64,000 bases of DNA from Tubulanus polymorphus (lineage: Eukaryota; Animalia; Nemertea): the NCBI RefSeq assembly GCF_964204645.1, contig NC_134028.1, forward strand, positions 12,323,263-12,387,262. The letters are read 5' to 3'. Positions within the stretch are counted from its first letter, which is position 1; the number at the start of each line of letters is the position of its first letter. The position numbers and the translations under genes were made by a program. Positions 17,423 to 54,342 of this stretch are shown in pieces. Under the pieces are notes generated by a model. The model saw nothing but the letters and a program-made list of their open reading frames with translations, was not told where the DNA came from and did no database searches.

Positions 17423-17506
17423 AGTAATAGGGAAAGTGGGCTTTCATACCAGAGGTCGAAGGTCGAGACACCACTCATCACCACAAGTAATTTTTTCCCC
17501 TTATAA
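17423..17506 (+). repeat. Left TIR of copy 1
   Basis: 5'-AGT end. Matches the termini at 34908 and, in reverse complement, those at 34666 and 51803. Confidence 0.85.
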
Positions 17507-34026: not shown

Positions 34027-34666
34027 GGGTTGAATTATTATTTTGAGTTATGATATTTTGAATTAAGATGGTGGGATTTATTGCTTAAAGTATGATATTT
34101 TCCACAATCACACAACACTTTTTCATTAGGTTCATATTTAGGCGTAACAATTTCATTATCTAAGTTACATTGAACTGCAACATCTTTGAATGATTTTTCA
34201 TTATCTAATTCACATTGAATACCAATATTTGATAAACTTTCATTATAGATAATTTGTTTATCATCAAAATAATCTTTTCCTAAAATATTATTACTCAAAT
34301 TTTGATGGTGTTTTTGTGATTCGAGATGTCTTTTATAATTCCTTTTTACTATAAATTCATTACAAACTTCACATTTTATTTCATCCACATTCATATTTTC
34401 TAATCGTTCCTTTCTTTCATTGGATTTCTGGAGTTTCAAAATCTATTACATTTTTTATATGATTTGCAGATTTTTCATGATGAGATTTATTAGATTTATT
34501 AATGTATTTTTTACAATATGGACAATGATATTGATTTTCATTAACATTAATGTTTTCTGGCTGGTGTTCATTCTCCCCCATTTATTAGGAAAAAAAATCA
34601 CTTGTGGTGATGAGTGGTGTCTAGTACTCTAGTACTCTGGTATGAAAACGCCATCTTCTAATTACT
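34027..34666 (-). mobile_element. Terminal remnant of a variant element carrying a short zinc-finger gene (~34580-34038)
   Basis: TIR ends ...CTTCTAATTACT at 34666. The ORF shares the polB N-terminal zinc fingers (MGENEHQPE..., CEVCNEF) and then diverges. Confidence 0.7.
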
Positions 34667-34907: not shown

Positions 34908-35023
34908 AGTAATTAGAATATGTGGGTTTCATACCAGAGGACGAGAGGACGAGACACCACTCATCACCACAAGTAATTTTTTTCCTAACACTCATCACCA
35001 CAAGTAATTTTTTTTCCTAATAA

Positions 35024-35350
35024 ATGGGAGATAGAAAAGCATTCTTCGCAACAATAAATAACAGAATAAAACCAGCAAAAAAACAATTTGAAATAAAAAA
35101 GTTAGTTGATGTTACAAAAGAAATTGAACATAAAATATTGAAATTAGAAAAGATAAAAACTAAATATGGAGAGAAAGTATCAGCTAATTTAAGCTACTGT
35201 AATGTTAGTACATCGCGAGAATTTAAAGTGTTTTTACCCGATAAATGGGTTTCATTGAGTACGGAGGAATTGAAAGATTTAGTAGGATTTAAAATAATAT
35301 ATCATGGGAAAAATGAAGACGGTCATCATGATTTAGAAATTGTTGATTAA
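35024..35350 (+). CDS. 108-aa TIR-adjacent protein, possible OB-fold ssDNA-binding protein
   Basis: Intact ORF at TAAATG. Beta-strand-rich pattern with TKYG, FKVFLP and IIYHG. The fold is a guess. Confidence 0.55.
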   Translation: MGDRKAFFATINNRIKPAKKQFEIKKLVDVTKEIEHKILKLEKIKTKYGEKVSANLSYCNVSTSREFKVFLPDKWVSLSTEELKDLVGFKIIYHGKNEDGHHDLEIVD

Positions 35351-35544
35351 ATTTAAAAAAAAATAGATTAATAAAAATAATGAATATCTAGAATCCGAAA
35401 TGACTTATCTGGACAATTTAATTGCTCCACATAGATGGTGCCATAAACAACACCCACACAGTGATAGACAAAAGTAGTGAGATGGTGCCGTACGGCACCC
35501 ACATGGTGATATTCAATTATTTTTTTTGCTTTTTTTCTAAAATA

Positions 35545-35916
35545 TTAATCCATTTTTTTTATTATCAATTTTGGAATTTCAGAAGTACTTTCATTTTTGA
35601 TAGCAGTTGGTTCAGAATTACTACTAATATCATGAATTTTATTTGATTTCTTATACCAATTATACCCAATCAAAATGAATACAATTACAAATCCAACTGT
35701 AAAATATAAATATTTATCAAATATTCTACTATCAGAAGGAGTAGAAATAACAATATTTTCACCATTTTTATTAACATTTTTATTACTTATTTTTTCTTTT
35801 ACAGCTTTTTTATATTCTTGTGATTTAATTCCTAATTGTCGAGACCATTCAATTTGTTTCTGAGTTCTCGGTTTTTTCTTCACAGTTAATTCCTTCACTT
35901 CTTTCACCTCGCTCAT
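35545..35916 (-). CDS. Basic protein with a single TM helix (123 aa)
   Basis: KKPRTQKQIEW N-terminus and hydrophobic YLYFTVGFVIVFILIGY. Present in 3 copies. Confidence 0.75.
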   Translation of the reverse strand: MSEVKEVKELTVKKKPRTQKQIEWSRQLGIKSQEYKKAVKEKISNKNVNKNGENIVISTPSDSRIFDKYLYFTVGFVIVFILIGYNWYKKSNKIHDISSNSEPTAIKNESTSEIPKLIIKKMD

Positions 35917-36454
35917 TTATTATAGAAATATTTTTACTTTCAATATTTGAAAATGTTATAACCCCGGTTGATAATAATGTCATAAATCCACCTAATTGAA
36001 ATGATAAATATCCAATCCATTTATTTAATTCAGTCATAACTAAATAATCATTTTTTAAATCGGAATATAATCTATTTTCATCTTCAATTGGTAGTATATA
36101 ATTACATAATTTACTATAACCTTTTACTACATTTTCTGATATCGCGTCATTAATTTTAGCTGTTCTCGCGGCTTCATAAATCTTAAATAATCTAATAATT
36201 TCAACTGATTTCATTGTATCTAATTCATTATAAGTTAAATTTTTATCAACAAATTTTTTACATTTTCCAGATGCTATTAATATTTCTAATTGATGTTTGC
36301 AATAAAGATAATATTCATAATTATTATTTGTTGTAACATTATTTAAGGCACCATCATCTGGAATTAATTTTGTTTCTGTTATTCCTAAATCATCTAAAGT
36401 TTTTTCAATTGGAACATCACCATTTTTAGATTTTATTTTCTTTTCACCTCCCAT
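35849..36454 (-). CDS. Unknown protein (~201 aa, starts MGGEKK) with hydrophobic C-terminal segment
   Basis: Present in 3 copies. Start chosen by comparison with the TAAATG starts in copies 1 and 3. Confidence 0.75.
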   Translation of the reverse strand: MGGEKKIKSKNGDVPIEKTLDDLGITETKLIPDDGALNNVTTNNNYEYYLYCKHQLEILIASGKCKKFVDKNLTYNELDTMKSVEIIRLFKIYEAARTAKINDAISENVVKGYSKLCNYILPIEDENRLYSDLKNDYLVMTELNKWIGYLSFQLGGFMTLLSTGVITFSNIESKNISIINERGERSEGINCEEKTENSETN

Positions 36455-36747
36455 TTTTATAATAAAAAAATTAGTTGTGATGTTGCAACTAGAATTTAAC
36501 AAGAATGTAACTAGAATTCAACTAGATTAACAAGCTAGTTGAAATATTGTTGTTTTTGTTTATTTCTTGTTAAATCTAGTTGATTTTTGTTTCAACTACT
36601 AACAACTAGAATTCAACTAGAATGTAACTAGAATTAAAATAGATTAACAAGCTAGTTAAAATATTGTTAAATCTATTTGATTTTTGTTACAACTACTAAT
36701 AACTAGAATTCAACTAGAATTCAACTAGATTAACAAACTAATTGAAT

Positions 36748-37356
36748 TTAAATAAATTCATATCTAAATGGGTGTTGTAATCTAAATAGTAATTTTGATA
36801 TTTTAATATTTTTCAACTTATCCATATATTCATTATGTAAATCATGTGGAATAATATCATTTTCCTCAAGTGCATTTTTCATCGATTTTCTATCTTTATT
36901 GTAGAATAAAACTAGAAATCTAATGTTTTCTCTAAAGTCTTTAACAATTGAATTATATTTTTGATTTAAAACCCAAGTTGTTATCCCAAAATGTCTCCCA
37001 GAGAAAGCTAAATAGCATAACTCACTTTCTCTAATTTTTGAATCATGTAAATTTGCACAATCATCTATGATAAATAATGTATTTGATCCTTTATAAATAT
37101 CAATTGCTATTTTTATACAATCATCTAAATTTTCTTTTACTGTTTTAGGATCTAATATAATAAATTTATTATTCCTAGTAATATTTCTATCATAAGTTTG
37201 ATTAAATTCATATGTTGGACAAAATAATACTATATTATCAAAATAGTTTTTGTAAACAGTTTCTAATAAATTTAATATAAAATAAATTTTTCCACAATTT
37301 GTTACACCAGAAATTAACATATTATGAGGCTCAAATATAAATAATTCTTTATTCAT
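36748..37356 (-). CDS. A32/FtsK-like genome packaging ATPase
   Basis: Walker A GVTNCGK(I), Walker B LFIIDD, arginine-finger GRHFGI and LNQ motif. Confidence 0.9.
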   Translation of the reverse strand: MNKELFIFEPHNMLISGVTNCGKIYFILNLLETVYKNYFDNIVLFCPTYEFNQTYDRNITRNNKFIILDPKTVKENLDDCIKIAIDIYKGSNTLFIIDDCANLHDSKIRESELCYLAFSGRHFGITTWVLNQKYNSIVKDFRENIRFLVLFYNKDRKSMKNALEENDIIPHDLHNEYMDKLKNIKISKLLFRLQHPFRYEFI

Positions 37357-38484
37357 TTATATATTTTTAATTTTACTTGATAATATCCATTCATTGAATT
37401 TATCTGGCCATCCAACCCATTTTACTAAAGAATATTTTTTTCTTTTAATAGTTTTTGTTTTTAATACTTTTTCAATTTTATATTCTTGTTCTAGATTTTC
37501 AGTAGTTAAACTTAATTCTTCTTCATAAAAGTAACCATCAACTTCTTCACCATCTAAATCTTCTAATTTATAGACATATGGTTTTGTTGTTATTACCTTT
37601 TTTATTTTATATATTTCTCTAGTAAAATTTCGATCGTATCCTTTGTCAAATATCTTTTTATACTTAGAAATTCTAACATTTTGACCAACTTTAAATTTAG
37701 GTTCACCAAAATCATCTACAAGAAATGCTCCATATAAATTATTCCAAACAATTTCAGCATTTTCAGGTTTTCTAGCATCAATAGGTTTCATTCCAATAGA
37801 AGAATGATAAGAATTATTATATCCTTCTATCAATTTTGGTAAAACATCAATCCATTTAAAAGTATTATTTGCTGTAAAATATTTCCACATTCTTGTTCTT
37901 AATGTTCTATTAAATCGTTCAACAACTGCTGCTTTTTTATCTGATTTTGTTGAAAAATATTTAATATTATGATTATCTAAGAGTTCATGAACAAGTGAAT
38001 TATCAAACTCTTTTCCATCATCAAATTGTATTTTTTCTGGATTTAGTTTATCATCCGAAAGAAATTTTCTTAAAACATTTGATGTTTGTACAGCATCTTT
38101 TCTATAAAGTGGGAAACTCCATACATAACGACTAAAAATATCAATTATATTCAATAACCACCAATAATCATCATTATCTTTCTTAACATTTTTCATATCA
38201 ATTAAATCTCCTTGCCACTGTTGATCTACATAACTTACCATAGTTTTACGAGTTTTATATTTTCTAACAATTTTTTTATGTGTTGTATATGTTGGTTGTT
38301 CTAACATAAATTCATTTATATCTTTATATTTAACTAAATTTTGTGGGATTATCTTATCTAATTTATCTTGTTTTACTTTACACCATATATTTTTAGTAGA
38401 AGAATAAGCAACCGAACTCTCAGGGTTGTAATATAAATTTCTTAAATATTGTTCTTTAGTATTAGGAGTTTTTTTACCACTCAT
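37357..38484 (-). CDS. Retroviral-like (RVE) integrase with C-terminal chromodomain
   Basis: WQGDLIDM (D), IQFDDGKEF (D), VVERFNRTL (E), and chromodomain YKIEKVL...LVKWVGWPDKFNEWI. Confidence 0.95.
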   Translation of the reverse strand: MSGKKTPNTKEQYLRNLYYNPESSVAYSSTKNIWCKVKQDKLDKIIPQNLVKYKDINEFMLEQPTYTTHKKIVRKYKTRKTMVSYVDQQWQGDLIDMKNVKKDNDDYWWLLNIIDIFSRYVWSFPLYRKDAVQTSNVLRKFLSDDKLNPEKIQFDDGKEFDNSLVHELLDNHNIKYFSTKSDKKAAVVERFNRTLRTRMWKYFTANNTFKWIDVLPKLIEGYNNSYHSSIGMKPIDARKPENAEIVWNNLYGAFLVDDFGEPKFKVGQNVRISKYKKIFDKGYDRNFTREIYKIKKVITTKPYVYKLEDLDGEEVDGYFYEEELSLTTENLEQEYKIEKVLKTKTIKRKKYSLVKWVGWPDKFNEWILSSKIKNI

Positions 38485-38514
38485 TTATATATCCTTAATT
38501 TTAACTTTATATTT

Positions 38515-39762
38515 CTAATATTGAATACTATCTAATTGTGAATTTACAATATTTAATTGCGCGTCAGATATAATATAAATGTGCATTTTAAAATTTTTGA
38601 TTCCTTTATTCTTTTTCATGAATAATTGTATTCCATCTTTAGTGTTCTGTAGTTTTTTTCCAGAACCATGTAATGAATTATCTTCAGTTGTTCTAAAATC
38701 TAACCATAATGCATATTTATTACCGGTATAATAATCAATTTGATTAATGTTACAATTTTCAGATGATTTCACTTTTTCATTCATAAAATGTTTTCTAATT
38801 TCTGGCCATTGATCAATCATTCTCATTCCTTGACAAAATATTTTATTTGCTATACCTTCGATAGTTATTTCTACTTTTGTTATTTCAGGATTATAATAAT
38901 TGTCAACATTTATTGCACCATTAGTATACGTTCCAATGGTAAAAAATATTAATATACCTTTAATAGATCTTCTAGGAAAGTTAATATTCTCATTAATTAT
39001 TTCATCATTTGCATTAATAGTTACAGTTTTAAATTTATCAATATAATCATATAATAATGAAAACCCTTGATTGTATTGAGTTTGAATTATACTTGAAATA
39101 TTTTCATCAGTTACTGTATCATATTCTAAACATATATTCGATAATTTATAACTCATATCTTTAACAACGCTAGATAATACAATTTCATTTACAGGAGCAA
39201 ATGTTATTTCAAATATATCGTCTTCTTGAATTGCGTATTTATATAAAGGTGCATTATTATTTATCAATTCAAAGTCTAATGGAATTTTATATTTACTTCC
39301 ATATATACTTTTTATCAATTTATCTACATCATTAGTTAATATTGCGCTATTAGCTTCTGATCTTAATTTATTTTGGTTTTCTGATTGAATTCCTTGAAAT
39401 ATCATATTATTTCTATTTTCTTTAGTTAACCATAAATCTTTATAATGCATAAATAAATTATAATCATCTAATGAGAAAACTGTTTCTGGACCAATCTTTA
39501 TTGTTAACTTTTTAATCAAATATCTTCCAACATTATCAACGACATAATCATTATTATTACCGATTACTTTTATATCAGCTGATAAATAAATACTGTTTGG
39601 AACATAAAAAGTATTTTGTGTTAATCTAGGAATTCTAACATATAAAGTTTCATCGGGATTAATATTTGAAGGGTTATGAGTAATTATATGATGTGATCTT
39701 TCTGCTTTAATAGCATTAGATATTCTAGAAATCTTAGAAGGACTTATATAACTCCCACTCAT
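38515..39762 (-). CDS. Major capsid protein candidate (double jelly-roll), 415 aa
   Basis: Size, beta-rich pattern, high conservation among copies and position next to integrase and ATPase. N-terminal NPSNI...LYVRIP and LIKKLTIKIG segments resemble Polinton-like virus MCPs. Confidence 0.7.
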   Translation of the reverse strand: MSGSYISPSKISRISNAIKAERSHHIITHNPSNINPDETLYVRIPRLTQNTFYVPNSIYLSADIKVIGNNNDYVVDNVGRYLIKKLTIKIGPETVFSLDDYNLFMHYKDLWLTKENRNNMIFQGIQSENQNKLRSEANSAILTNDVDKLIKSIYGSKYKIPLDFELINNNAPLYKYAIQEDDIFEITFAPVNEIVLSSVVKDMSYKLSNICLEYDTVTDENISSIIQTQYNQGFSLLYDYIDKFKTVTINANDEIINENINFPRRSIKGILIFFTIGTYTNGAINVDNYYNPEITKVEITIEGIANKIFCQGMRMIDQWPEIRKHFMNEKVKSSENCNINQIDYYTGNKYALWLDFRTTEDNSLHGSGKKLQNTKDGIQLFMKKNKGIKNFKMHIYIISDAQLNIVNSQLDSIQY

Positions 39763-39829
39763 TTATTTAACAAAAAAATCAATTATTTATTTTTTATTAT
39801 GGTTTACTTGATATTTTTTGATATCATGT

Positions 39830-41272
39830 TTACTTGATATTTTTTGATATCATATTCACTAACCCAAAAATAATAGCACTTACAACTGTAATTAAAAATA
39901 AAATAATATGTTCAGCAGCAAAGTTAAGAATATTCCCAGCAGATTTCAATATAAAACCAACAATTGATGCAATAACTCCTGGCAATGCTGCAGCAGATTT
40001 TTTAGATAGTTCCCATAAATATTTTGCTAATTTCTTTAAACCATCCTTAACTTTATCTTGTATAGAATTATTGCCTGGAGGTTTATCTGGTCTATTGGGA
40101 GTGGGAGTAGGAGTAGATTTTAAAGCATTTGATATAGCTAAACCAATTGTTGTAAATAACATAGTTACAGCTGTTAGAATTGAAAGAATTGTTATTCCTT
40201 CTAATTTAAATAATAATCTTATTCTGTCTTTTAGTGATATTTCAGAATTTGGTTTAATCAACAAATCTTTAAAAATAACTTTTAATCTATTAATATTATA
40301 ATCATATGATTTTAACAATAATTTAATTTCTTCTTTTTGTAATTCTATGTTATATTCTAAATCATCTTTTTCTTTTTCTAAACGTAATTCTTTTTGCCTA
40401 TATTCTATTTCATCAATTACTTGATGATCTAAATCAGACTTTAATTGTTCTATTTCTTTATTTTTATCAGTTAATTCTTTTTCTAAAGTTCTAATTTTAA
40501 AATCTCTTATACTTTTATTATGTGCAATTTTATCAGATGCAAGTCTTATACTAATAATTTCTCTAATTGCTTTATCAGAAAATATATCTAAATCTTCTAA
40601 TTCTTGATCTGTTGCATCAATTAATCCATTCGGTAAAAGTTTTTCAATTGGAACTTTATTTGATTTAAGTTTACTATTTTTGGAAGTTATATTCTGTTCA
40701 GAAGTTGTTTCTGTTTCTGATTTCTTTTTGATTATTTCAAATAATTCATTAATTCTTTGTTTAAATACATCTATATTATCATCTATTTCTTTTTGTGTAA
40801 CATCAGTTATTTCATTACTATTACTTATTATTTTAATTCTATCTGGTTTTAATTTTTCTAAAGTTGATTCTGATAATATTTTATTTTTATTATTTTTATA
40901 AGTGATATCAATATAATAATCACCTTTCAAACGATAATAACATTTACCATTATCTAAAAATTTTAATTGATCTGCTAAAAGTCCAACGTCTTCATCATTT
41001 ATGTTAAAATTAGATTTTTCAATTAAATCTTCTAATTTAGGTATTTTGTTTAAATTATCTAAATCTTGTTTTACTAAATCTGGGTCTAAATTTTCAGGAT
41101 TTAATTGTGATTCAGCATTTTTAATATAATCAGGCATATTTAAATTATTATTATATTCTGGTTCATTACCATCATTAAAACTTGTTTCATCAAAATCAGG
41201 TGGTTGTTCATCAGTTATGTTAGGTTCATCAAAAGGATCCATTCCAATATCTTCTCCACCTTCTACATCCAT
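39830..41272 (-). CDS. Acidic N-terminus, coiled coil and multiple C-terminal TM helices (480 aa)
   Basis: Intact ORF with hydrophobic stretches GITILSILTAVTMLFTTIGLAI, LPGVIASIVGFIL and IILFLITVVSAIIFGLV. Confidence 0.8.
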   Translation of the reverse strand: MDVEGGEDIGMDPFDEPNITDEQPPDFDETSFNDGNEPEYNNNLNMPDYIKNAESQLNPENLDPDLVKQDLDNLNKIPKLEDLIEKSNFNINDEDVGLLADQLKFLDNGKCYYRLKGDYYIDITYKNNKNKILSESTLEKLKPDRIKIISNSNEITDVTQKEIDDNIDVFKQRINELFEIIKKKSETETTSEQNITSKNSKLKSNKVPIEKLLPNGLIDATDQELEDLDIFSDKAIREIISIRLASDKIAHNKSIRDFKIRTLEKELTDKNKEIEQLKSDLDHQVIDEIEYRQKELRLEKEKDDLEYNIELQKEEIKLLLKSYDYNINRLKVIFKDLLIKPNSEISLKDRIRLLFKLEGITILSILTAVTMLFTTIGLAISNALKSTPTPTPNRPDKPPGNNSIQDKVKDGLKKLAKYLWELSKKSAAALPGVIASIVGFILKSAGNILNFAAEHIILFLITVVSAIIFGLVNMISKNIK

Positions 41273-41288
41273 TTATATAATAAAAAAA

Positions 41289-42677
41289 TTAAAATTTAAA
41301 ATATAATATTCCTCCTATAACAATTCCTATACAAGTTATAGCTAATTTAGTATTTTCATGGGATTTATTATCATCATTTAGTTTAATTATATCATGTTGA
41401 ATTTTATCAGTTTTTATATCTTCTGATGTATTATAATCTTTTATTTTAGAATCATTATCCAATTTAATATTCTTAGTTTTAGTTTCAGTTGATTGAATAT
41501 GTTTTTTATTTTTTTCACCTTCCATTAATTTTGGAGCAGTAATAATCTTTTTATTTATATCATTTAATCCAAATGAATTATTTATTGTTGCAGTTTTAAT
41601 TAGATTATTATAACCAATTATATTTCCCATCTTCAATACTAAATCATTAGAAATAATTAATAGATTAGGGCCTATACAATAATTAAGTCTTACATGAGAT
41701 TTATCTAAATAATTTTGATATCTTATAATGTTTTCTGGAATCGATCTATTTTTATCATTATGTATGGAATCTTCAAATAAAACATTAAATTGTTTTTGTG
41801 TATCGAATGATGTATTCAAATTTCCAATTATCGGTGATCTTGTTTCAACTTGCGCACCTAAAATACAAATTAAATAAGTTCTAATAGATTGATTTATTCT
41901 TTCTATACCTGATTTAGTAAAACCTTCACTATTCTCTAAAATAAAATATACCCAACCATTATTGTTTTCTTGTTTTAAATTATCATAAAATTTCGGTAAT
42001 TTATTGAAATTTAATGTTTCTAAATCCTTTGTTTCTATTTTACCATAACCTAATTTATTATTATAGATATTATAAAAACTATTAGATGGTATGGGAAGTG
42101 CACAATATTCTGCAATCTTTCTAGGGCAAGGAAGTGATCTTATTGTTCCAATTTTTGTTCTAAAATCAGAATTATTTATATCTATATTAAATTCATTGCA
42201 AATTTTATAAAACTTTGATAAATTAATATTATTATCTAATTCTTTGAAATATCTAGATCCTGGTAAAGCGCACTCTAATTCATTTAATATTATTCTGATT
42301 TGAAAGTATGTATGAAATCTAAATAAACTTTGAATTAATTTATATTTAGAATTATTCAAATGATCATTCCAACTAATTCCACAACCTGTTGTTGCACAAT
42401 AAACAGCAAAATTTAATTGGTTCTGCCAATACTTCATATTAGATTTTAATAACCATTGTTTTTCATCTTTCAATTTTTTTAAATTAATTAAATATACATG
42501 AAATATATTTTCCATCTTTGCATTAAAATTATTAGTTTCAGTAACATAAATATATAAATCAATTAATGAATCTAAAACTTCATTTCTATATGTAATATCT
42601 TTATTAAAATCTATTGCTGGAATATTATATTTAATTGATTTATTATATTGGAAAGCTTTTGGAAAACTATCTACCAT
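41289..42677 (-). CDS. Unknown protein with C-terminal membrane anchor (462 aa)
   Basis: Intact ORF with conserved YWQNQLNFAVYCATTGCGIS and terminal LAITCIGIVIGGILYF. Confidence 0.8.
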   Translation of the reverse strand: MVDSFPKAFQYNKSIKYNIPAIDFNKDITYRNEVLDSLIDLYIYVTETNNFNAKMENIFHVYLINLKKLKDEKQWLLKSNMKYWQNQLNFAVYCATTGCGISWNDHLNNSKYKLIQSLFRFHTYFQIRIILNELECALPGSRYFKELDNNINLSKFYKICNEFNIDINNSDFRTKIGTIRSLPCPRKIAEYCALPIPSNSFYNIYNNKLGYGKIETKDLETLNFNKLPKFYDNLKQENNNGWVYFILENSEGFTKSGIERINQSIRTYLICILGAQVETRSPIIGNLNTSFDTQKQFNVLFEDSIHNDKNRSIPENIIRYQNYLDKSHVRLNYCIGPNLLIISNDLVLKMGNIIGYNNLIKTATINNSFGLNDINKKIITAPKLMEGEKNKKHIQSTETKTKNIKLDNDSKIKDYNTSEDIKTDKIQHDIIKLNDDNKSHENTKLAITCIGIVIGGILYFKF

Positions 42678-42694
42678 TTATATAATTAAAAAAA

Positions 42695-43129
42695 TTAATA
42701 ATTTATTAATTCTTTTAATAATTTATCTTGTTCTTCAACTGTTATATGACCATTTAAACTTATTATATAATCTAGTGTGTTCTTTAATTTATTAATTTCT
42801 TTTATATTAGATTTTATTTTTTCTTTATTACTTTTTATATTTAATTTTGAACTTATACCAGTTAAAACACTTGAACTTAATCCTAACACACCAATTGATA
42901 TAGCTAAAGGTGTTAATGGACTGAATATTGCTAGAAATGTTATTACAGAACTAATTGTAACCGAACCACTGATAATAAGATAATATATAATTTTACTTTT
43001 TAAATATTTTTTCTTTTTTATCTTTAAGTCACTTTCAAATTCTAATATTTGTTTTTCTAAATATATTTTTAATTTAGTTTTATTTATATCATGATGAATA
43101 ATATCAATATTATCAACTTTATCTTCCAT
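42695..43129 (-). CDS. Two-TM small protein (144 aa)
   Basis: Two adjacent hydrophobic helices. Present in 3 copies. Confidence 0.78.
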   Translation of the reverse strand: MEDKVDNIDIIHHDINKTKLKIYLEKQILEFESDLKIKKKKYLKSKIIYYLIISGSVTISSVITFLAIFSPLTPLAISIGVLGLSSSVLTGISSKLNIKSNKEKIKSNIKEINKLKNTLDYIISLNGHITVEEQDKLLKELINY

Positions 43130-43148
43130 TTATTTAGAATAAAAATTA

Positions 43149-43571
43149 CTAATTAGTAAACTTATAAGCAACAAATATAACAATAACAGTTCCACCTAAA
43201 ATCCATATTATTTCATATTTCTGTTGTTCTTTACTCGGGGTATAATAATCTGATAATTTAGGTTTGTATAGATGTAATTTTTCTTTATTTGTTACTGCGT
43301 TATATAAACTCATTGCATCATCAACTGATTGAAAATCTCTATGTGAAATCTTCTGATCATATAATTCTTTGTTAATATAATCCATATAGTTTTGTCGTTT
43401 TTCTCTATATTCTTCCGCAGCTTTATTGTATTTCTCTAACGCTAAGTTATGTCTTCTTTGTTCTCCTAATGAACTATTTTTATCAATATGTTTAAATAAA
43501 TAACCACCACCAGTAAATGCTAAAGCGTTAACAATTGCCGGTCCTATAATAGTTATAATTGCAGAAGCCAT
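43149..43571 (-). CDS. Small protein with N- and C-terminal hydrophobic segments (140 aa)
   Basis: IVNALAFTGGGYLF, short coiled coil and terminal TM. Present in 3 copies. Confidence 0.78.
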   Translation of the reverse strand: MASAIITIIGPAIVNALAFTGGGYLFKHIDKNSSLGEQRRHNLALEKYNKAAEEYREKRQNYMDYINKELYDQKISHRDFQSVDDAMSLYNAVTNKEKLHLYKPKLSDYYTPSKEQQKYEIIWILGGTVIVIFVAYKFTN

Positions 43572-43596
43572 TTATTTAGCAAAAAAAATTATGCAT

Positions 43597-43818
43597 TTAT
43601 ATGGGAGGAATATATTTTTGTTTTTCCAAATAATCAATAGTTAAATTAGATAAAGTAACTGCTAATGTTAACTTTAAAATATCATTTATATCAAATCTAT
43701 CAACATTAACACTTCCCATTTTGAATACTTTTTTTAATACCATTGAATAACCAACCGTTCCAACTGATAGTAATGCACCATTATATAATCCAGTTATTAT
43801 CCACTTATTATCACTCAT
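43597..43818 (-). CDS. 73-aa hydrophobic protein
   Basis: Present in 4 copies, TAAATG start. Confidence 0.78.
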   Translation of the reverse strand: MSDNKWIITGLYNGALLSVGTVGYSMVLKKVFKMGSVNVDRFDINDILKLTLAVTLSNLTIDYLEKQKYIPPI

Positions 43819-44160
43819 TTATTTATCAAAAAAATTACTATCATCAAAATATTTAGTTAACTTATTTATGATTAATTCAACATTTATTTCATTACTAGTT
43901 TTATGATTATCATATATTTTGGATAATATGTTTTTGATATCTTCAATAATTCCATCTTCATTTAATTCATAATATTCTAAAGGTGATTTAATTAAATCAA
44001 TTACTTTTTCTATATTATACTTTTCTTTATCAATCATTGACGCATTGTTAAATGATTTACTTTTTATATCAGTAATTACATCATTTAGTTTAATTCTCAT
44101 TTCTTTACCATGTTTAAAATCAAACCCAAAACATATACTCGGTCCAACAGTTATATTCAT
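43819..44160 (-). CDS. Unknown 113-aa protein
   Basis: Present in 4 copies, TAAATG start. Confidence 0.72.
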   Translation of the reverse strand: MNITVGPSICFGFDFKHGKEMRIKLNDVITDIKSKSFNNASMIDKEKYNIEKVIDLIKSPLEYYELNEDGIIEDIKNILSKIYDNHKTSNEINVELIINKLTKYFDDSNFFDK

Positions 44161-44176
44161 TTATATAATGAAAAAA

Positions 44177-44935
44177 TTACTCTTTACATCTTATAACTAA
44201 TTCATAAATTACAGGGAAATTATTTAAATCAATTAAGTATCCATTATGATTTCTAATTTCTAATCTAAAATTATTAAAACGAGGAATGCATGGTTTGAAA
44301 TCACATTCTGTTAAATTATAATTTATTTGCGTTCCAAATTGTTTAACATTCTTCAATGGTAAAATGTTTAGTAAACCAGAATTACATGTTGTATCTTTAG
44401 TTGCTTCAAATGTTTTTGTAGGATCGATTAAATTGCAATAAATATAAAAATGTGTAAAAGGTATTATATTTGAATTACCGTCTACGTTTCCTGTAACAAT
44501 TTGTGGTTTAATTCCTAACAGTTTAGCTAAAGGTTTCCTTACCATAAATGCATGTTTGCTTTCATCATCTAACTTTATTTTAATTTTATCAGAACTATCA
44601 CTTTTTATAAATCTAATTGAAAATTTATATTCACTTCCAAGTTTTAAACGAGCTCTTTTATTAATTTCTTGGGCTAATGTTTCTAAATTATATAACCCTG
44701 GTTTTAACATTAGATAAAACCATTTATTTTTATTTTTCATATGAATTGCAAAACCTCTATGTTCGAAAGTTTTATCCGATATATTATAAAAAGAATTACA
44801 TAAACTTATATTTACTAATTTTAAATCAACGCAATTCTTAAATTCTCTATCTAATTGTACTAATAAATTATGAGATTTATAATTTGTAAGTTTTCTAGAA
44901 TCAACAAATATTCTGTATTCTTTTAATTCTACCAT
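44177..44935 (-). CDS. Minor capsid protein (penton, single jelly-roll) candidate
   Basis: IFVDSR, LCNSFYNI, PGLYN, FYIYCNLI and LEIRNHNGYLIDLNN..VIYELVI, the pattern typical of virophage/PLV pentons. Confidence 0.78.
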   Translation of the reverse strand: MVELKEYRIFVDSRKLTNYKSHNLLVQLDREFKNCVDLKLVNISLCNSFYNISDKTFEHRGFAIHMKNKNKWFYLMLKPGLYNLETLAQEINKRARLKLGSEYKFSIRFIKSDSSDKIKIKLDDESKHAFMVRKPLAKLLGIKPQIVTGNVDGNSNIIPFTHFYIYCNLIDPTKTFEATKDTTCNSGLLNILPLKNVKQFGTQINYNLTECDFKPCIPRFNNFRLEIRNHNGYLIDLNNFPVIYELVIRCKE

Positions 44936-45003
44936 TATTTATAACATAAAAAAATTACCGCTCATCACTAAAAATTAATTTTAATAAAATTTTTCCTTAA
45001 TAA

Positions 45004-46302
45004 ATGGATGAGAAGATAGCATGCGAAATTTGTGGTGAACTTCTAAGAAAAAGTAATAAGGCTCGACATATGAAAAAACATGATGAAAATTATAAACCCC
45101 CTAAAATAAACTGTCCAAAATGTAATAAATTATTCTCAAGAAATTATGTTAAAAAACATTCAGAGAAGTGTAGAATTAATGGCGCAACGGCTAATGTTGA
45201 TAGTAATTCTGCTGAAGTTGAACCTGAAGTTATTTGGAAAAGACCTTTCTTATTCTATGATAAGGATAATATAAAAGATCATTTCTGTGAGCCTTGTCAA
45301 GTAAAATATAGCCCTGAAAATATAGAAGATTGGGAGAATCATCAATTTCGTAAAGCACATATAGATAAAATTTCTAATAAATTTGAAACTGAATTCAATG
45401 AAAGAAAAAATAATTTATTAGAAAAAATAAAATATGAGAAAACGTTACCAGATAATAAAGAAACAGTTGAAAAGTTAGAAAAACAATATAATGAATTAAC
45501 AAGAAAAACATATTATTGTAAATATTGTAAATTGATTATTACAACAAGTAATTCAAATCTACATAATAGAACAATAAAACATAAAGAAAACGTAAGAAAA
45601 TACCAAGAGCTTAATGAAGATCTATTACCAAGAAATTATAAACAAAAATGCCCACAATGTAGTTATGCGACCTTAAGGCAAGAAGGTACTGTGTTATTTT
45701 GTGTTGAATGTGGATGGCAAAAGAATTTATGGGGTGAAGAAAAAACTAGAGATTTTCTCATAGAACCAAAATTAAATTATCTAGATGAAATTTTTAAAAT
45801 ATTTTCTATAGAAGATCATACACCAGAATATATGCAATGGCTTGAAAAAATGAAAATAATAGAAAATAAAAATGGTGAAATAACTAAAAAAGATATTATA
45901 AAAACAATTATTCCACCAACATTTAACACAAAACAAAAGAAAATGTATTTATATTTATTATTTAACGATTATTATGAAAAACCTAAATTAACAGAAGAAG
46001 ATATGGAAAATATAAAAAAAATATTTAAACAAATATTAATGTATTATTTGGAAAATAGAATAACAGATTCAATAAATTATGAATTCTTTTTAAATAAGAT
46101 TGTAAATTATTTAAACCTAGATATTATAATTCCATTTGATGAATTAACAAACAAAAAGAAACAAAGAGAGCGAGATGAAATGTGGAACAAGATAGAACTT
46201 TATTTAAATGAGAAAAATGGAATGGAAGAAGAACCTGAACAATTAAATGAAAATGAAGAAGCCAATAGTGATTTCGAGTTTGATGATATAGATCCATTTT
46301 AA
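45004..46302 (+). CDS. C2H2 zinc fingers fused to a poxvirus/NCLDV VLTF3(A2)-like late transcription factor domain
   Basis: Four N-terminal zinc-finger-like units, zinc ribbon CPQC...CVECG, and C-terminal PKLTEED..IKKIFKQI...INYEFFLNKI...RDEMWNKI. Confidence 0.7.
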   Translation: MDEKIACEICGELLRKSNKARHMKKHDENYKPPKINCPKCNKLFSRNYVKKHSEKCRINGATANVDSNSAEVEPEVIWKRPFLFYDKDNIKDHFCEPCQVKYSPENIEDWENHQFRKAHIDKISNKFETEFNERKNNLLEKIKYEKTLPDNKETVEKLEKQYNELTRKTYYCKYCKLIITTSNSNLHNRTIKHKENVRKYQELNEDLLPRNYKQKCPQCSYATLRQEGTVLFCVECGWQKNLWGEEKTRDFLIEPKLNYLDEIFKIFSIEDHTPEYMQWLEKMKIIENKNGEITKKDIIKTIIPPTFNTKQKKMYLYLLFNDYYEKPKLTEEDMENIKKIFKQILMYYLENRITDSINYEFFLNKIVNYLNLDIIIPFDELTNKKKQRERDEMWNKIELYLNEKNGMEEEPEQLNENEEANSDFEFDDIDPF

Positions 46303-49300
46303 TAACCATAAGGTAATGTTTTTATACCATCATCTGAAATATGCCTTTTATCATCAAATGGATTTAAACTAGTTTTTTCAACTTCATTAATGTACATCTC
46401 ATGATCTTCTGATCTTAAACAATTCATCTTGTGTTTCATTACAATTGATTTATATAAACACTTTATATAATCTTGAAATTCTATATGTTTATCAACCACA
46501 TGTTTTGTTATTCCTTTTAACTTTTTAGCTTCATGATCTTTTGTTCTGTAACTATACATTTTACTTCTTATCCCAACAAATTCAATCATTTCATCACCTC
46601 CTAATTCATCTTTAAATTTACCAGGAATCTTTTTATTATCATTGCTAAATAGTTCATGATCTTTAGGATAATTGCTAAAATCAAAATGATGTTTTAATGT
46701 TTTTAAGTCTTTTGTTATGTCATTTGTCTTGATTTTTAGTATGTAGGCGTCAGTATTGACCGCTATTAATGGAAATCCACAGTTAAATGTACCATCTTCA
46801 GTTGATAAATCATAAACATAATCTGTTGGGTTATATATTTCAAATAAATCTTTAACTTCTTCAGTTAACTCATTTTCTACATGGCTTAAATTAAAGCAAT
46901 TTGGTTTAGATTTAATCAATCCAATATTCATATTGAAGCCTAATGAATTACATAATATATTTAATCCTGATATAGCAACTTTTCCTTTTTGAGCAAAGGA
47001 TATTGTTTTGCGGTTTTGGAAACTTTTTGAACCATCTGCTGCATAGAATCCAATGAAGAACCATTTTCTTAAATTATTTTTTGCATTTAATACATAATCT
47101 GGAACTATCTTTTCTTTTGTCGAAGTATTACTTTTCACTATTGCATGAATATAGAATTCATCATTATATTCTATAGCAAAATCTTTAGGATTATTTACAA
47201 GTATTCTATAAACTGCTGATGATTTCATAACATCTATGATTTTGAATGTTTTATTTGGATAAACTTCTTCACAGAATTTCTTAAATCTTTCTAATAATTT
47301 TAAGTCTTGATTGCATAAATACCAACAATATTTAGTTCCACTAACATAATTATACACACCTGCTGAACCATCACCCATGAAAAATCCTTTGATAAAATAT
47401 TCTTTTTCTTCTAATGTTTCGGGTTCTATATTATAAATATTATCAATTATTTCATCAAATGACATATGATTCATTCTTGGGTAAAATCTCTTATGTAATA
47501 ATTCATCTCCAATTTTTATATCAATTGGTTTTATTTTATCACCATTTCGTTTAATTAAACTATGATCTTCTGTAACATCTACAAACCCTAATTTAGTTCT
47601 AACTCTATAGATTTTCTTATTTGTTTTATGCCTAATAATATTCTTTAATTTTTTCCATCCATTTCTTGTCCAAACATCCATTAAACCATTTATTTGTATT
47701 AATTCTTTTTCTCCATATGAAATATAACATTCATTTTGTTTTGGAATTATTTCTGAAATTCTTCTTACCAATATTTTATTATTACATTTTAATAATATTG
47801 GGGTGTCGGCCGTTACAGAATCGAAGTACAGAATTTCTATATGTTTTTCCCCAAACAATGGTTGTAAAACATTATAATAAAAATTATACATTAGTAATTT
47901 TGATATTTCCAAAACAGTTGAACCTATAAATATAGGTTTATTAAATTTTAATGATGTTCTTTTTAATTTTACTGCTGTTAAATAATCTTCAAACCTTTTA
48001 TTTCCTAAATGTCTAGGACTTGATTGTAAATGTCTTAATCTTTCAGAATTATTTACTAATTCAATATCATTTCTATTTCTAATATTTTCACATGTTTTAC
48101 CATAAAAACTATTATTCATTAATTTAAAGAAATCTTTTTCAAAATCTGTTTTTGATATGGTTCTCTGTTGAGTATTGAAATCTATATATTTTTCTAACCA
48201 CTTCGATTGATTAAATTCAATATATCTATGTACTTTCTTTAATTTCATTCCTTGTTTTAGATAAAATTTTAACATTCTATAATGAACAATATAATTGTAT
48301 TTATTATTTTGAGTAAGTATGAATTTTTCTGTAAAAACATGATCTTTCGGTTTTATTTTCTTCTGGTATTCACTTAAATAACTATCATCTACAGTTAAAT
48401 GTTCTGGGCAATAAGGTAAGTTTCTTGTTTTAAACTTTATATTTTCAGGATATTCTAAATCAACTACAAAGAAATAACCAATTGGTGCTTCATCTTTTAA
48501 ACTAATAATTGCGCTTTCCCAATCAGTTTTATCACCATTTTCAACTTCTGTTAATATAAAATTTTTATATGGTTGAGGTTGCATCATTGCCCAACCATAT
48601 AAATTATTGGCGTCAATATATAATAATTTATATTCATCATTTGCTTTAAAATACCTATCTCCCATAACACCACTAATTCCACCTCTAATTGATTTTTCAA
48701 ATAATAAAACCATATCTGGTTCTTTTAATAAATCTAATTCTACATTTGTATATTTTAAACCACATTGCCAGGTTAAACCAGGACTAGAGTAGCAATAACA
48801 AGGATCAACATTAAAATGATTCAAATTAACTTCTCTAAATTTTTCAAATATGTCAGCCAATATCATAACATCTGATTTCAAGTATAAATCTACTAATTCA
48901 CCCTGATTTTCTACCTTAAAATGATTCCAAATATTCAATGTTCTATTAAAAACTTCATCTTTCACATACTCCTCTTTTAATTGATCATAAAATTGTTCTT
49001 TTAATAATTCTGTTACATTAAAATCATCATGTGTTTTATAAAATGAATAAGGAATTGCGCCTTTATATCTCAATAATTTAAAATCTTGTTCATTTGGATA
49101 ATAATGTCGAGTTATTAAATCATTATCAACTATACTTTTTGCTAAATTATCTAATGAACTTGCTTAAAATCTATAAGAATCTAAAAATCTAATGCAACCA
49201 AATTGAAATGAAATATTATTTTCAGATGTCTTAGCTAATAGTTTAAAATCATATTTTCTTACATTTGCACCATTCATAGCATTATATTCTTCTATTTCTT

Positions 49301-51464
49301 GATTAATTGCGCCCAATTTTCCTGATAATTTTTTTATAAATAGATGGGTATCATAGCCCGATAGATTATGAAAAAATATTTTGTTACGAAATTAACTTTC
49401 TTAGCTTGTAAATTACAATCTTCATGAGCAGCTCCGCGGTATTTTCAATTTAAATGATCATGATCTCTAACTTTTTTATCAAATGAATATAAACGTTTTT
49501 CACAATAACAACAATGAGTTGCATAATTAAAATCAATTTCATCTTCTTTTGTCATAACTATTCTTTTATTTTTGTTTAATGATTTTGCAAAATCACTTTC
49601 TATTTCAATTATTTTGTTACAAAAATCATTCACTACATCTTCACCTCTAAGAGAAATATATTGACTTTCGTATAATTCAGGATAATTTGATTTTATGTAA
49701 ATTCCATAAGCAGCAGCTCTTTGATGAACTTTTTTAATTGTGTTTATCATTGGTGGATCTTGATTTATGTCTTCATTTAATTCATTTCCTTTATCCATTG
49801 ATTTTAGAAATTGCTTTTTATTGTATATTTCTTTTCTATCTTGATCAGTTAATTCTTTATTCAACGATTCAAAATCCCCATAAATAACAAATGGAACAAC
49901 ATTTTTAAATTTGTGATTAGTAAATTTCAACTTACAATCTTTTTTTGTTGGCATTATTAATTTTCAAAAATCTTTATTATCACATAATTCTTTATGTTTT
50001 ATTAATGTATTCTCAGCCGTGAATTTAGATAAACATTTTCTACATAGATAAAATTCAAAAATCTTTATTATCACATAATTCTTTATGTTTTAATAATGTA
50101 TTCTCAGCCATGAATTTAGATAAACATTTTCTACATAGATAAATTTTATGATGATGATCACTTTCTGTTCTAAAGAATAAATCAATTTGTTTTAACCACA
50201 TATAATGTTCATTTTCATCTTTTTTGTAATATAACAAATATAATAATTAATAGCATTTTCATCATCATAATATTCTGTTAAATATAAAGCTTCTAATGTA
50301 TAATCTTTAATATTTTCACCTTTTGTCGTTGGTAATTGCATTAATTCGAATACATTTATTTTTAAATTATTAACTTTTTCTATTTTAGGAATCATTTTTA
50401 TAGTTACTGGATATTGATCAATTTTATATAATGTTTCATATTTCCGGTAATCTGTTATTCTAAAACTATGCGTAATATCTTCTGTTGGGTGTAAGCAACT
50501 AATAATTGACCATAGAAAACATTTATTATCTTCATTTTGAACATTTATTACTGCTTTTGTTGTAAATGGTAATTTGATATAACTTGATGCTTTAATATCC
50601 TTTTCTGTTGTAAAGTTTGAATCATTTTTAAACATTGTTTTACTTTTTGATGTTTTATTCATTTTTGTATTATAAACATTTAAATCTAAAAATATGATTT
50701 CATTCAATGTTAAACCAGAACCCTCAAAATATCTTTCATCAATATGACGTTTAAATTCATTAAATATTTTTTCTAACTTCTCTTTTATTTGTGTTTTTGA
50801 AATTATTTCTTCAGAGAGTGTTTGAATATCATAATCCATTTTATCTTTTGACTTTAAAAAACTTACTTTCCCAGAGATACAAATTTTTGGATATTCAACA
50901 TCCGTTATCAAATCTAGTATTTTTTCTGCTATTTCATTAAATTCACAATAATCTTCTATTGCTGTACCTTTAAAAAATCTAAATATAATAGCTGCAGGAC
51001 CAATTTTACTATGTAATGTTTCTAAAATTTCAATTGTATCTTTTATTTCTAGTGAATCGATATAATTTCTAACATTTTCCATGTAAGGTTTATTTGAAAT
51101 GGATTTAGTTTTTGAAGTTGGTTTTTTTTACTTGTTGAGGTTTATCATCGAAATAATCTATTCCTAAAACATTATTACTCAAATTTTGATGGTGTTTTTG
51201 TGATTCGAGATGTCTTTTATAATTCCTATTACTATAAATTCATTACAAACTTCACATTTTATTTCATCCACATTCATATCATCTTATCGTTCTTTTCTTT
51301 CATTGGAATTTTCTGGAGTTTCATAATCTATTACATTTTTTATGAATTTATGATTTGCAGATTTTTCATGACGCGATTTTTGAGATTTATCAATGTATTT
51401 TTTACAATATTGACAATAATATTGATTTTCATTAACATCAATCAATTGTCTTATTCTCTCCCAA
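46299..51464 (-). pseudogene. polB: Protein-primed PolB with intein, copy 2 (C-terminal 924 codons open, N-terminal part frameshifted, start mutated)
   Basis: Exonuclease and polymerase motifs as in copy 1. ~91-bp tandem duplication at ~49964-50145. TAAATG changed to TAATTG. Confidence 0.93.
46755..47819 (-). mobile_element. Intact 355-aa intein with LAGLIDADG homing endonuclease
   Basis: In-frame insertion YFD|S...N|TDA. Block A SVTADTPILL, block B VDVTEDHSL, blocks C/E FIKGFFMGDGS and FFIGFYAADGS, block F YVYDLST, block G LIAVN/T. Confidence 0.93.
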
Positions 51465-51469
51465 TTATA

Positions 51470-51803
51470 AGGAAAAAAAATTACTTGTGGTGATGAGTGG
51501 GGATTACTTCCCCTTGTATATAACAAGCACGCAATCGTCCGTTCTCATCCAAGCCTCACAGCATCTATTTATCCGAGCACAGCTGACGCGCAATCACTGT
51601 ACTACAGTAATAGCACGCGTGTTAATAACCGTTCTCGGTAGCACCTCGCTGTATCGATCTATCCACGCGCAGCTGTTGTTGCGCAATCACTGTACTACAG
51701 TAATAGCAAACGCGCTAATAACCGTTCTCGCTAGTGCCTAGCTGTGATGAGAGGTGTCTCGACCTCACGACCTCTGGTATGAAAGCCTACTTTTCCCATT
51801 ACT
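51470..51803 (-). repeat. Right TIR of copy 2 including a ~250-bp GC-richer insert
   Basis: TIR core flanks a block that also occurs at ~33765-34005. Confidence 0.8.
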
Positions 51804-52785
51804 TATATTTTTGTTTTTCTAAATAATCAATTGTTAAATTAGATAAAGTAACTGCTAACGTTAATTTTAAAATATCATTGATATCAAATCTATCAACATT
51901 AACACTTTCCATTTTAGATACTTTTTTTAAAAATACCATTGAATAACCAACAGTTCCAACTGATAGTAAGGCACCATTATATAATCCAGTTATTATCCAC
52001 TTATTATCACTCATTTATTAATAAAAAAAAATTACTATCTTCAAAATATTTAGTTATCTTACTTATGATTATTTCAACATTTATAATATTATTAGTTTCA
52101 TTTTCATATATTTCAGTTATTATTTCTTTAATATCATTAATAATAAAATCTTCACCTAATTCATAAAATCTTAAAGACTCTCTAAATAAATCGGTAATCT
52201 TTTCTACATTAAAAGTTTCTTTATCTATTGTTTTTTCAAAATCAAATGTTGTTTCATTGGAAAATGCAATATTTTTAATATGTGTATACAATTTATATCA
52301 TTAATATCAAATTTCATTTCTTTCTCACGTTTAAAATCAAATCCAAAACATATACTCGGTCCTACTGGAATATTCATTTATATAATGAAAAAATTACTCT
52401 CTTCATCTTATAACTAATTCATAAATTACAGGAAAGTTATTCAAATCAATTAAATAACCATTATGATTTCTTATTTCTAATTTGAAATTATTGAAATGTG
52501 GAATACAAGGTTTAAAATCACATTCAGCTAAATTATAATTTATTTGCGTTCCAAGTTGTTTAACATTTTTTAATGGTAAAGTATTTAATATACTAGAATT
52601 ACAAATTGTATCTTTAGTTGCTTCAAATGTTTTTGTAGGATCAATTAAATTGCAATAAATATAAAAGTGTGTAAAAGTCATTAAATTTGTATAAGTTTCA
52701 ATACTTGAATAATCTCTATCTGGAAGAATTCCACACAGTTTAGCTAAAGGTTTTTTTACTAGAAATCTGTGTTGTTCATTAGTTA
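51804..52785 (-). mobile_element. Fragment of another copy (73-aa gene, 113-aa gene, 3' half of penton) into which copy 2's terminus is inserted
   Basis: The 73-aa gene is cut at ...EKQKY| by the TIR. The penton sequence is of the copy-3 type (LTNEQHRFLV). Confidence 0.85.
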
Positions 52786-54342
52786 GAGTTTTCTGACTTT
52801 CGTCGAAAACCCCCTTGTAATTCTGTTGATTATTATTATTATTTACATATTCGAATACTGGTGAAACCATGCATTCAGGCAGGACACATATCAGTACAGT
52901 GGCGGCGCGCAACAATTGTTTTATTAATGAAACAACATGGTGGATGGTTGAAATCATTTTCGGCTTAAATTTATCGCGAGTTTTAGGACCTTAATGAATT
53001 TCACGAAACCGTGATTTCTAAAATGACTCAAATAATTAATTCTATCCGTAAATCAATTTACGTTGGCTACATTTCCTGAAGATTTCGGGCTCAAATCAAC
53101 GTGATATGGACAGAAATTGTAGGAATTTTTCACACGTAATTTTACTTCCGCGTTCAGTTGACGACTCGGATCGATGACAACGACAGCGGAGTTAATGTAT
53201 TTGAAGGTGAGAATCCGTTAACCAGGGAATGTATTAAATGATTTCTTTAATAATATGAGTATGGTAGCAAATGAGTACTCGGTGAAGCAATGATCATTGT
53301 TGGCTACGTACTTAATGCCTAGCTTTTTGGGGGAATGCGCCTAGAATAGATTTAGGCCCTAAATATAGTGGGTAGACCCAGTCAGTGGAATGCCTTAATA
53401 GCAGCTAGTTATGGCCTGGTTTACACTGAATGTGCACGACAATATATTTTGATTACGTTCTTTCCAGCTATTATTCGTGGAATGAACTGGTCACTACGGT
53501 CTTCAATTCCTTTGCGGATTCTTGCAGGAATATATTCAAACCACAGTGCGGAAATGCATGTTTCAAATTAGGCTTTTTCGACATTGACAGCCAAAGACAT
53601 AACTTAACGCTCTAACTGAAGCACAACTGTGTTAGACGCTGTAAGTACTTGACGTTTTGCGTAATTGTTTTTTTTTTCTAATTCAATATTTGGATTAGTA
53701 ATCAGTCGTGCTAACATACATGCAGAATTGGATTCATTGTTATTATGGGATGATAATTCATGGGCGTCAAGTGTCGACATACCCTTGATATGAAGCTTTA
53801 CCAATGCCACGTGGCTTGGTGTCTATGCTCTACGAGACTGTAGTAATAGATTTTCACTACAAATTCATGATTTAAATTAGTCTCCTAAGATATTATATTT
53901 TATTTCGCTCCTCAACTAAGTAATTCTTACATTTGATTGCTAAATTACAGATTGAAAGAGGTCAGATGGCATGAAAATCGACTGTGGCTGACTAATTGGC
54001 GCGAGTAATCAAAATGCTTCAATCATCAGGGGTAGACAAATTAGCCGAAGATGAATGAAAACTTCACCATGATGATCATCAGTTGATTTTGCTGTAATTA
54101 TTTGCCTGGATATATCCTTCATTTCAAAATCTGTCTTCAGTAGAATTTTTTTCATTTAAATATAAATTTATTTGACTAATTTTTATGTATTGAAGATTGA
54201 ATTTGAATTGATCTTAAAACCAGAGAAAGCATTCAGAAATTTAGAAAATCCTTGACTCATAATCAAATTCTGTGAAGTCAGTTAAGGTCTTTTTGCTCGA
54301 ATCAAGCCGAGGGCTCAGGTAGCTAAAACTCAATTCCTCACT
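52786..54342. repeat. Non-Polinton insert, probably a Helentron/HINE-like element
   Basis: Abrupt rise in GC. Begins with hairpin GTTTTCTGAC-TTTC-GTCGAAAAC plus (ATT)n and ends ...AAAACTC...CACTAGT. No credible ORF. Confidence 0.4.

Follow-up and report, generated by a model that had tools for sequence, protein, structure and literature searches.

Organization of the element

From ~17.4 kb to its end, the window (the whole stretch of Tubulanus polymorphus DNA analysed here, 64,000 nucleotides) is occupied by three decayed copies (A, B and C) of one low-GC element, with 21–31% GC in the copies versus 35–43% in the flank. Copy A is inverted relative to copy B, and copy C is truncated at the window end. 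Pieces of additional element copies were seen between the main ones, at 34040–34650 and 51800–52900, and the flank carries a long 30-nt tandem array (15172–17000) and a reverse-transcriptase ORF (12331–13647).

Copy B spans 34925–51792 (ends approximate, ~17 kb, 22–27% GC versus the 35–43% of the flank) and ends in inverted terminal sequence, the inverted terminal matches being accompanied by reads that join 34977 and 51760 on opposite strands. Its minus strand encodes an A32-like packaging ATPase (36748–37356; Pfam Pox_A32, 45.3 bits against a cut-off of 22.8), a retroviral-type integrase (37357–38484; Pfam rve, 40.2 against 32.6 bits, with a weak chromodomain match), a likely major capsid protein (38515–39762; weak Capsid_N match, E = 0.0035, under the cut-off), for which 926 homologues were found, nearly all without a name, and a family B DNA polymerase gene (polB) in three ORF pieces (46299–51082), named from family B motifs read in the translation, since Pfam gave no polymerase match. 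Outside polB and the VLTF3 gene, copy B has thirteen ORFs, those of the ATPase, integrase and likely capsid protein among them, on mixed strands at 35024–44935, and 11 of the 13 start in TAAATG, mostly with a T-run ~10 nt upstream. With an rve integrase, an A32-like ATPase and terminal inverted repeats, together with a likely capsid protein and a putative family B polymerase, copy B is assigned as a Polinton. Since an adenovirus-type cysteine protease was not found by Pfam in the 17 ORFs of copy B, and a weak SLATT match was (E = 0.0055, which fits a group 2-like element and is no proof of one), the element is probably group 2-like in the grouping described in passages of 10.64898/2026.06.19.733378. 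Pfam likewise returned no RNA polymerase subunit in the 17 ORFs, a search that also missed the full-length VLTF3 protein.

A 355-aa intein with a LAGLIDADG domain (46755–47819, minus strand) sits within polB motif C; its first residue is Ser, it ends in Val-Asn, and Thr follows it. Homing-endonuclease and intein insertions in Polinton polymerases are mentioned in passages of PMC11161782. No close relative of this intein was found in IMG/VR or the phage set apart from one 27% match in a phage record without annotation, and the intein is therefore uninformative about a helper. IMG/VR scans with the VLTF3 protein, the capsid protein, the capsid alignment and the intein confirmed nothing. The 108-aa protein encoded at 35024–35350 (plus strand) has Atlas relatives without a name, in clusters that are mostly arthropod (weak evidence), and the nearest named cluster, a phi29-type single-strand DNA binding family (0.88), is a lead only. 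One cluster of capsid homologues (P0054, 53% identical) is assigned to several Bartonella sp. assemblies, in which it lies on short contigs, and is probably contamination.

Layout and copies of the VLTF3 gene

The VLTF3/A2-like gene of copy B (45004–46302, plus strand) is intact and encodes 432 aa. Four N-terminal zinc fingers (aa 7–193; 45022–45582) comprise a C2H2 finger at aa 7–26, a C2HC finger at aa 37–56, and two fingers with longer H–H spacing at aa 95–119 and 172–193, the fourth being of U1/matrin type and above the Pfam zf-U1 cut-off (28.9 against 22 bits). They are followed by a C4 zinc ribbon, CxxC-x14-CxxC (aa 216–236; 45649–45711), all four cysteines of which align with the entomopoxvirus A2-type ribbon, including that of P0005, and by a helical VLTF3 domain (~aa 253–404; 45760–46215) with a Pfam PF04947 match at aa 325–401 and the motifs PKLTEED, IFKQI, INYEFFLNKI and DEMWNKI at residues 327, 340, 357 and 391. 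The arrangement of four fingers, C4 ribbon and helical C-terminal motifs given in the preliminary description was thus recovered at the same places. An upstream signal at 44961–45006 (plus strand) consists of a CTCATCAC box, a T-run and TAAATG at the start codon.

As had been claimed, the gene is transcribed opposite to the structural block (35545–44935), and it overlaps the convergent polB ORF by 4 nt (46299–46302). The overlap was rejected as meaningful, since convergent ORFs of the related loci L001 and L003 overlap likewise. The gene had also been described as present in all three copies, which holds for homologous DNA and not for an intact reading frame. The homologue in copy A (22609–23830, approximate, minus strand, 95% identical DNA) has an internal deletion and frameshifts from ~codon 280, in its 3' third, and that in copy C (~62907–64000, plus strand, 94% identical DNA) is frameshifted from codon 5 and then cut by the window end. 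The only intact VLTF3 gene is therefore in copy B, whose own polB is in pieces. Zinc fingers at the polB 5' ends (51320–51451, 34320–34575 and 17710–18231) resemble those fused to VLTF3 (E ~1e-4), a likeness which suggests that the finger partner of the fusion may have been derived from within the element.

Between copies, pN/pS for the VLTF3 gene was 0.61 and 0.79 versus 0.21–0.24 for the capsid gene and 0.21–0.34 for capsid and integrase together, a comparison based on few differences (13–15 synonymous). Read depth, taken from one DNA run with the same species label (1934 Mb of reads, copy number uncalibrated), was 211–254 over the VLTF3 gene versus 566–779 over the capsid gene (~1/3), and was similar to that over polB. 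A depth of this order from 1934 Mb means that many copies of the VLTF3 gene exist, in a number that is uncalibrated.

Family assignment

The preliminary description placed the protein in the VLTF3/A2 family, and this was supported by Pfam on the isolated domain, by the ESM Atlas and by fold searches. The full-length protein gave no VLTF3 match in Pfam at E ≤ 1; residues 205–410 in isolation exceeded the PF04947 (Pox_VLTF3) cut-off (28.0 against 25 bits, E = 2.1e-6, profile positions 83–164 of 168). The same residues did not match PF08792, the A2L-type zinc ribbon profile, though their four cysteines align with P0005. In the ESM Atlas, 27 of 30 matches carried PF04947 (top score 0.96).

Structure prediction gave models with pLDDT 64.9 for the full-length protein and 80.6 for the domain alone, both built from alignments containing poxvirus-type rows, and these models matched viral VLTF3 models. 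With the domain model, ranks 2–4 in BFVD were cowpox and two entomopoxvirus VLTF3s (E from 1.4e-6 to 6.3e-6), rank 1 being without a name, and most named rows among the best 30 were VLTF3; the cowpox fold match (E = 1.4e-6, TM 0.62) sets one predicted model against another. When the full-length model was used, the best match was a Megaviridae VLTF3. Against solved structures, the best PDB match of the domain was TFIIB (7o4i_M, Z 6.7, rmsd 3.5, 93 aligned), tied with cyclins at Z ~6–7, so that a weakly cyclin/TFIIB-like fold, with a ribbon and one cyclin-like box, is a lead only, and one drawn from predicted models. Foldseek with the full model gave no PDB match at E ≤ 0.001, and its weak Rap94 and TFIIB rows were not relied on. 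By sequence, PDB returned zinc-finger matches only for the window protein and nothing significant for P0005.

A word-indexed homologue search with aa 205–410 retained none of 992 candidates at E ≤ 0.001. A phmmer search of the domain against 1.84 billion representatives gave four matches: P0002 (50% identity) and P0003 (39%), both full-length with the same finger–ribbon–helix layout; P0004, a divergent 281-aa form; and P0005 (E = 6.4e-4), a compact A2-like protein that was the sole match with Pfam VLTF3 domains and is 63% identical to the entomopoxvirus VLTF-3 of locus L042. The N-terminus of P0002 matches an ORF at the end of Polinton locus L003. Judged from these sequence and model comparisons, the gene is a genuine homologue of VLTF3, and homologues of this kind have been reported from Polintons before.

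Comparison with poxvirus and giant-virus proteins

The protein was compared with 82 others, 5 of entomopoxvirus type and 77 of giant-virus type, the latter from 120 loci picked by one motif, which the L016 protein discussed below resembles, after 43 proteins shorter than 200 aa were dropped; chordopox-, asfar-, irido-, marseille- and egoviruses lay outside this comparison, and composition differs between the groups. With the window domain as query, the five entomopoxvirus-type proteins ranked 1–5 of 82, at affinity scores of 21–36 bits and with both sets rich in N, K, I and Y. A Polinton-only profile mixed both sets, with a giant-virus protein third of 82. BLASTP against the VLTF-3 of AMEV (P0130) gave 36% over 74 aa (pairwise E = 1e-9), and a later profile search returned named entomopoxvirus VLTF-3s, a result that is partly circular, P0005 being in the profile.

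A tree with 23 giant-virus representatives resolved only three groups and was set aside as uninformative on the donor. A second tree, with 12 of these 23 plus the L016 protein, split the window-type Polinton proteins and 6 entomopoxvirus-type proteins from the 12 giant-virus proteins and L016 (96/90); long branches meet in both trees. A single clade of all five Polinton proteins, including L016, was rejected (p-AU 0.027), the group having been named after the tree was seen. Taken together, these comparisons point to a weak poxvirus affinity of the window VLTF3, which we rate as probable.

The L016 protein (L016:5082–5579, plus strand) is a second VLTF3-like protein, without ribbon, in a Polinton of 47% GC. 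It matched the VLTF3 profile under the cut-off (E = 3.6e-5, 24 bits) and scored higher against giant-virus than against entomopoxvirus or window-type proteins. Our own profiles, run over 41 related loci (L001–L041), found only this protein (E = 0.0015 for the mixed profile and 0.47 for that of Polinton plus entomopoxvirus proteins). With L003, recognized by its finger region, VLTF3 homologues were seen in 2 of the 41 loci, most of which are short fragments. In L003, a close relative, a deoxynucleoside kinase gene (L003:10340–10981, minus strand; PF01712, 110 bits) lies head-to-head with the VLTF3 gene.

Start signals of the element and its relatives

TAAATG was found at 12 of the 14 non-polymerase gene starts of copy B versus 39 of 657 other ATGs (5.9%; P = 1.6e-13), the count leaving out three ORFs that belong to neighbouring fragments and the three pieces of polB, in which the first ATG lies internally. 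For one of the two starts without TAAATG, the homologous starts of copies A and C do have it; at the other, TAAAT is displaced upstream by two bases in every copy. TAAATG occurs as well at the 5' ends of polB near 17507 and 34581. TTT at −14 to −12 accompanied 9 of 12 TAAATG starts versus 2 of 39 non-start TAAATG (P = 3e-6).

The 41 related loci were found with the capsid alignment, and in 34 of them starts were verified by N-terminal homology. TAAATG was present at 68 of 88 verified starts in these 34 loci, including loci of 36–44% GC, although the loci include near-duplicates and the 88 starts are not independent tests. T frequency at the related starts was 0.88, 0.76 and 0.72 at −12, −13 and −14. 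Many gene pairs are head-to-head with TAAATG on both strands. In L020–L034 the capsid gene and its head-to-head neighbour were seen as compact bidirectional units, with TAAATG on both strands 14–37 nt apart, and ATPase/neighbour pairs there have starts overlapping by 22 nt. In control loci, TAAATG was found at 13 of 124 giant-virus ORFs (4 of 40 in low-GC loci) and at 6 of 13 entomopoxvirus ORFs, both VLTF-3 genes among them.

The vaccinia late promoter, as described in passages of PMC11980589, is TAAAT followed by G, overlaps the start codon and has a conserved T at the tenth position upstream. Compared by sequence, the TAAATG and T-peak of the element match this late consensus, and the spacing of the T-peak matches closely. 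The poxvirus early terminator TTTTTNT occurred 8 times inside the 17 ORFs (~17 expected) and was not used as evidence. The CTCATCAC box was observed at 17474, 23863, 33760, 34614, 34991, 44961, 51497, 51751 and 62864; the termini contain it as well. The distance from box to start is 33 nt for polB, the 35024 gene and the VLTF3 gene of copy A, and 43 nt for the VLTF3 genes of copies B and C, and the box may mark a second promoter class.

In L014, L016 and L017, TAAATG was absent (0 of 11 starts; L016, 0 of 5), and TATA-like words were found at variable short distances. Since L016 has a VLTF3-like ORF yet no such start among five, VLTF3 is not tied to TAAATG and, on the evidence of this locus, does not imply it. 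VLTF3 type and promoter type may nevertheless go together, with one example of each. The capsid tree showed no clean promoter clade, the 4 non-TAAATG capsid starts being scattered among its 26 rows.

These data bear on the explanation that VLTF3 is cargo which the element could do without, or a relic of its ancestry, with TAAATG an unrelated feature of translation or composition, arising from stop–start coupling or an AT-rich start context. The low GC of the element (22–27%), the high pN/pS among copies, a VLTF3 depth below that of the capsid gene, the absence of TAAATG beside VLTF3 in L016 and its presence in many loci where no VLTF3 was seen would all fit. Against it, the TAAATG background is just 5.9%, or 10% in low-GC giant-virus loci; the motif persists at 36–44% GC and is carried by head-to-head pairs; stop–start coupling was rejected, as TAA is the stop of the upstream gene in just 3 of the 68; and fingers, ribbon and core are all retained in the full-length homologues of 50% and 39% identity. 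We regard this explanation as rather improbable.

A possible satellite of a poxvirus-type helper

A late transcription factor and a poxvirus-late-type start signal on most genes lead us to read the element as an integrated satellite dependent on a poxvirus-type helper, the polymerase of which is probably steered by VLTF3, and we give this reading a probability of about one half. The preliminary description had proposed that the element supplies or hijacks part of a large-DNA-virus transcription apparatus, and this idea gains independent support from the start signals. Members of the VLTF3/A2 family are expected to be needed together with A1, G8 and the viral RNA polymerase for late transcription. 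The integrated copy would be silent until a compatible helper infects the cell and element DNA reaches the cytoplasmic factory of the helper. There, the element VLTF3, with its predicted TFIIB-like ribbon-plus-cyclin layout, would associate with the helper polymerase and the remaining late factors, and the zinc fingers added to it would favour initiation at element promoters. Transcripts would start inside TAAAT, and their translation would need the helper's 5' poly(A) leader. Counting against the helper reading are the pN/pS of 0.61–0.79, the depth of ~1/3 of that of the capsid gene, the occurrence of VLTF3 in 2 of 41 related loci, and the lack of TAAATG in L016.

The same protein and starts could instead serve an element that is autonomous in the nucleus, VLTF3 being a private TFIIB-like factor that brings host RNA polymerase II to TAAATG and the T-run with no helper. 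TFIIB is the best PDB match of the domain (7o4i_M, Z 6.7), although it is tied with cyclins, and a Z below 8 for a helical domain may reflect a common arrangement. The integrase implies a nuclear phase, and the CTCATCAC box 33 nt before polB, the 35024 gene and the copy A VLTF3 gene could be a host-type early signal. However, initiation inside TAAATG leaves almost no 5' UTR unless there is a poxvirus-type poly(A) leader, the T at −3 of element starts is opposite to the purine usual in eukaryotic start contexts, and the T-peak spacing is close to that of vaccinia. Such autonomy appears unlikely.

A further alternative keeps the helper and changes the role of the protein: the promoters alone would exploit the helper machinery, and VLTF3 would be a decoy that competes with the helper factor and reduces late expression of the helper, so that the host is protected or resources are freed. 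The helper would already supply its own A2, which leaves a second copy to be explained; the element protein is far diverged, with added fingers and an acidic tail; and virophages can inhibit their helper, according to passages of PMC6428243. The protein has, however, kept its helical core and all four cysteines of the ribbon, and a block of late transcription would also hit the element's own late-type promoters, so that we consider a decoy rather improbable.

Extended beyond this element, the satellite reading would make a broad Polinton branch (capsids 30 to 76% identical) integrated virophages of poxvirus-type viruses, with repeated VLTF3 capture, on each occasion from the helper lineage with the promoter code that is used: poxvirus-type with TAAATG here, and giant-virus-type with short TATA-like starts in L016. 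This extension is offered tentatively, and we doubt it more than we trust it.

Relation to known systems

The window protein shares with the VLTF3/A2 family (PF04947 with PF08792; nearest sampled, entomopoxvirus VLTF-3, e.g. P0130 of AMEV) a C4 ribbon followed by a helical domain and a matching predicted fold, and with entomopoxvirus VLTF-3 a short gap, as compared with the giant-virus set, immediately ahead of the conserved tyrosine motif. It differs in ~200 extra N-terminal residues with four fingers, an acidic tail, 24–25% identity over the domain, the lack of a PF08792 match, and its place in a Polinton without detected RNA polymerase, A1 or G8. A2L is listed as a vaccinia late factor in passages of PMC11980589.

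VLTF3 in a subgroup of polintoviruses, with coral polintoviruses reported, is stated in passages of PMC11131425, citing Krupovic and Koonin 2016, so the surprise expressed in the preliminary description at finding it outside the canonical Maverick set was overstated. A VLTF homologue also appears in a figure key of PMC8502044, in a section on non-animal hosts, and passages of 10.64898/2026.06.19.733378 give VLTF3 in ~30% of two PLV clusters. The window element resembles these in combining a Polinton-type genome with a VLTF3 homologue, and differs from them in that those passages describe neither a poxvirus affinity nor a fusion to fingers, nor do they analyse promoters; the word 'promoter' has 0 occurrences in 10.64898/2026.06.19.733378.

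In the virophages mavirus and Sputnik, genes share the late promoter of the helper, as described in passages of PMC6428243. Like the window element, these are small capsid-encoding elements with no RNA polymerase and a helper-type late promoter, and mavirus also has an rve integrase; unlike it, their helpers are mimivirids of protists, whereas here the signal is poxvirus-type, the capsid is of the Polinton group, and helper dependence is inferred only. PLVs that occur in entomopoxvirus occlusion bodies have been proposed, in the text of PMC11296320, as hyperparasites of entomopoxviruses. They are likewise Polinton-related with a proposed poxvirus link, two being divergent members of the mavpol2 capsid clade; in contrast to the window element they are ~12 kb and have a cysteine protease, with tyrosine recombinases in two and no detectable integrase in the other two. 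In the main text of PMC11296320 promoter, VLTF and transcription each have 0 occurrences, as do VLTF and promoter in term counts on PMC4028283 and PMC4642659. No literature linking Polintons to TAAATG or poxvirus promoters was found, in a scope without supplements and subscription papers.

Implications

VLTF3 in a Polinton is by itself not new, being already in print; what is added here, from sequence comparison, is a finger-fused VLTF3 of probable poxvirus type, accompanied by a promoter code that matches it and recurs in a broad set of relatives. Passages of PMC11253617 call VLTF3 diagnostic of Nucleocytoviricota, with VLTF2/3 not detected outside that group; the present case is a warning against such use, VLTF3 not being confined to Nucleocytoviricota. 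With its promoter code and its transcription factor alike pointing to poxvirus-type machinery, the element makes Polinton expression testable, and bears on how Polintons are expressed and why their particles have not been seen. Should the satellite reading be correct, poxvirus satellites in a dormant state would make up many of the integrated Polintons, perhaps serving as a heritable defence against viruses, and Polinton promoters would reveal unseen helper viruses.
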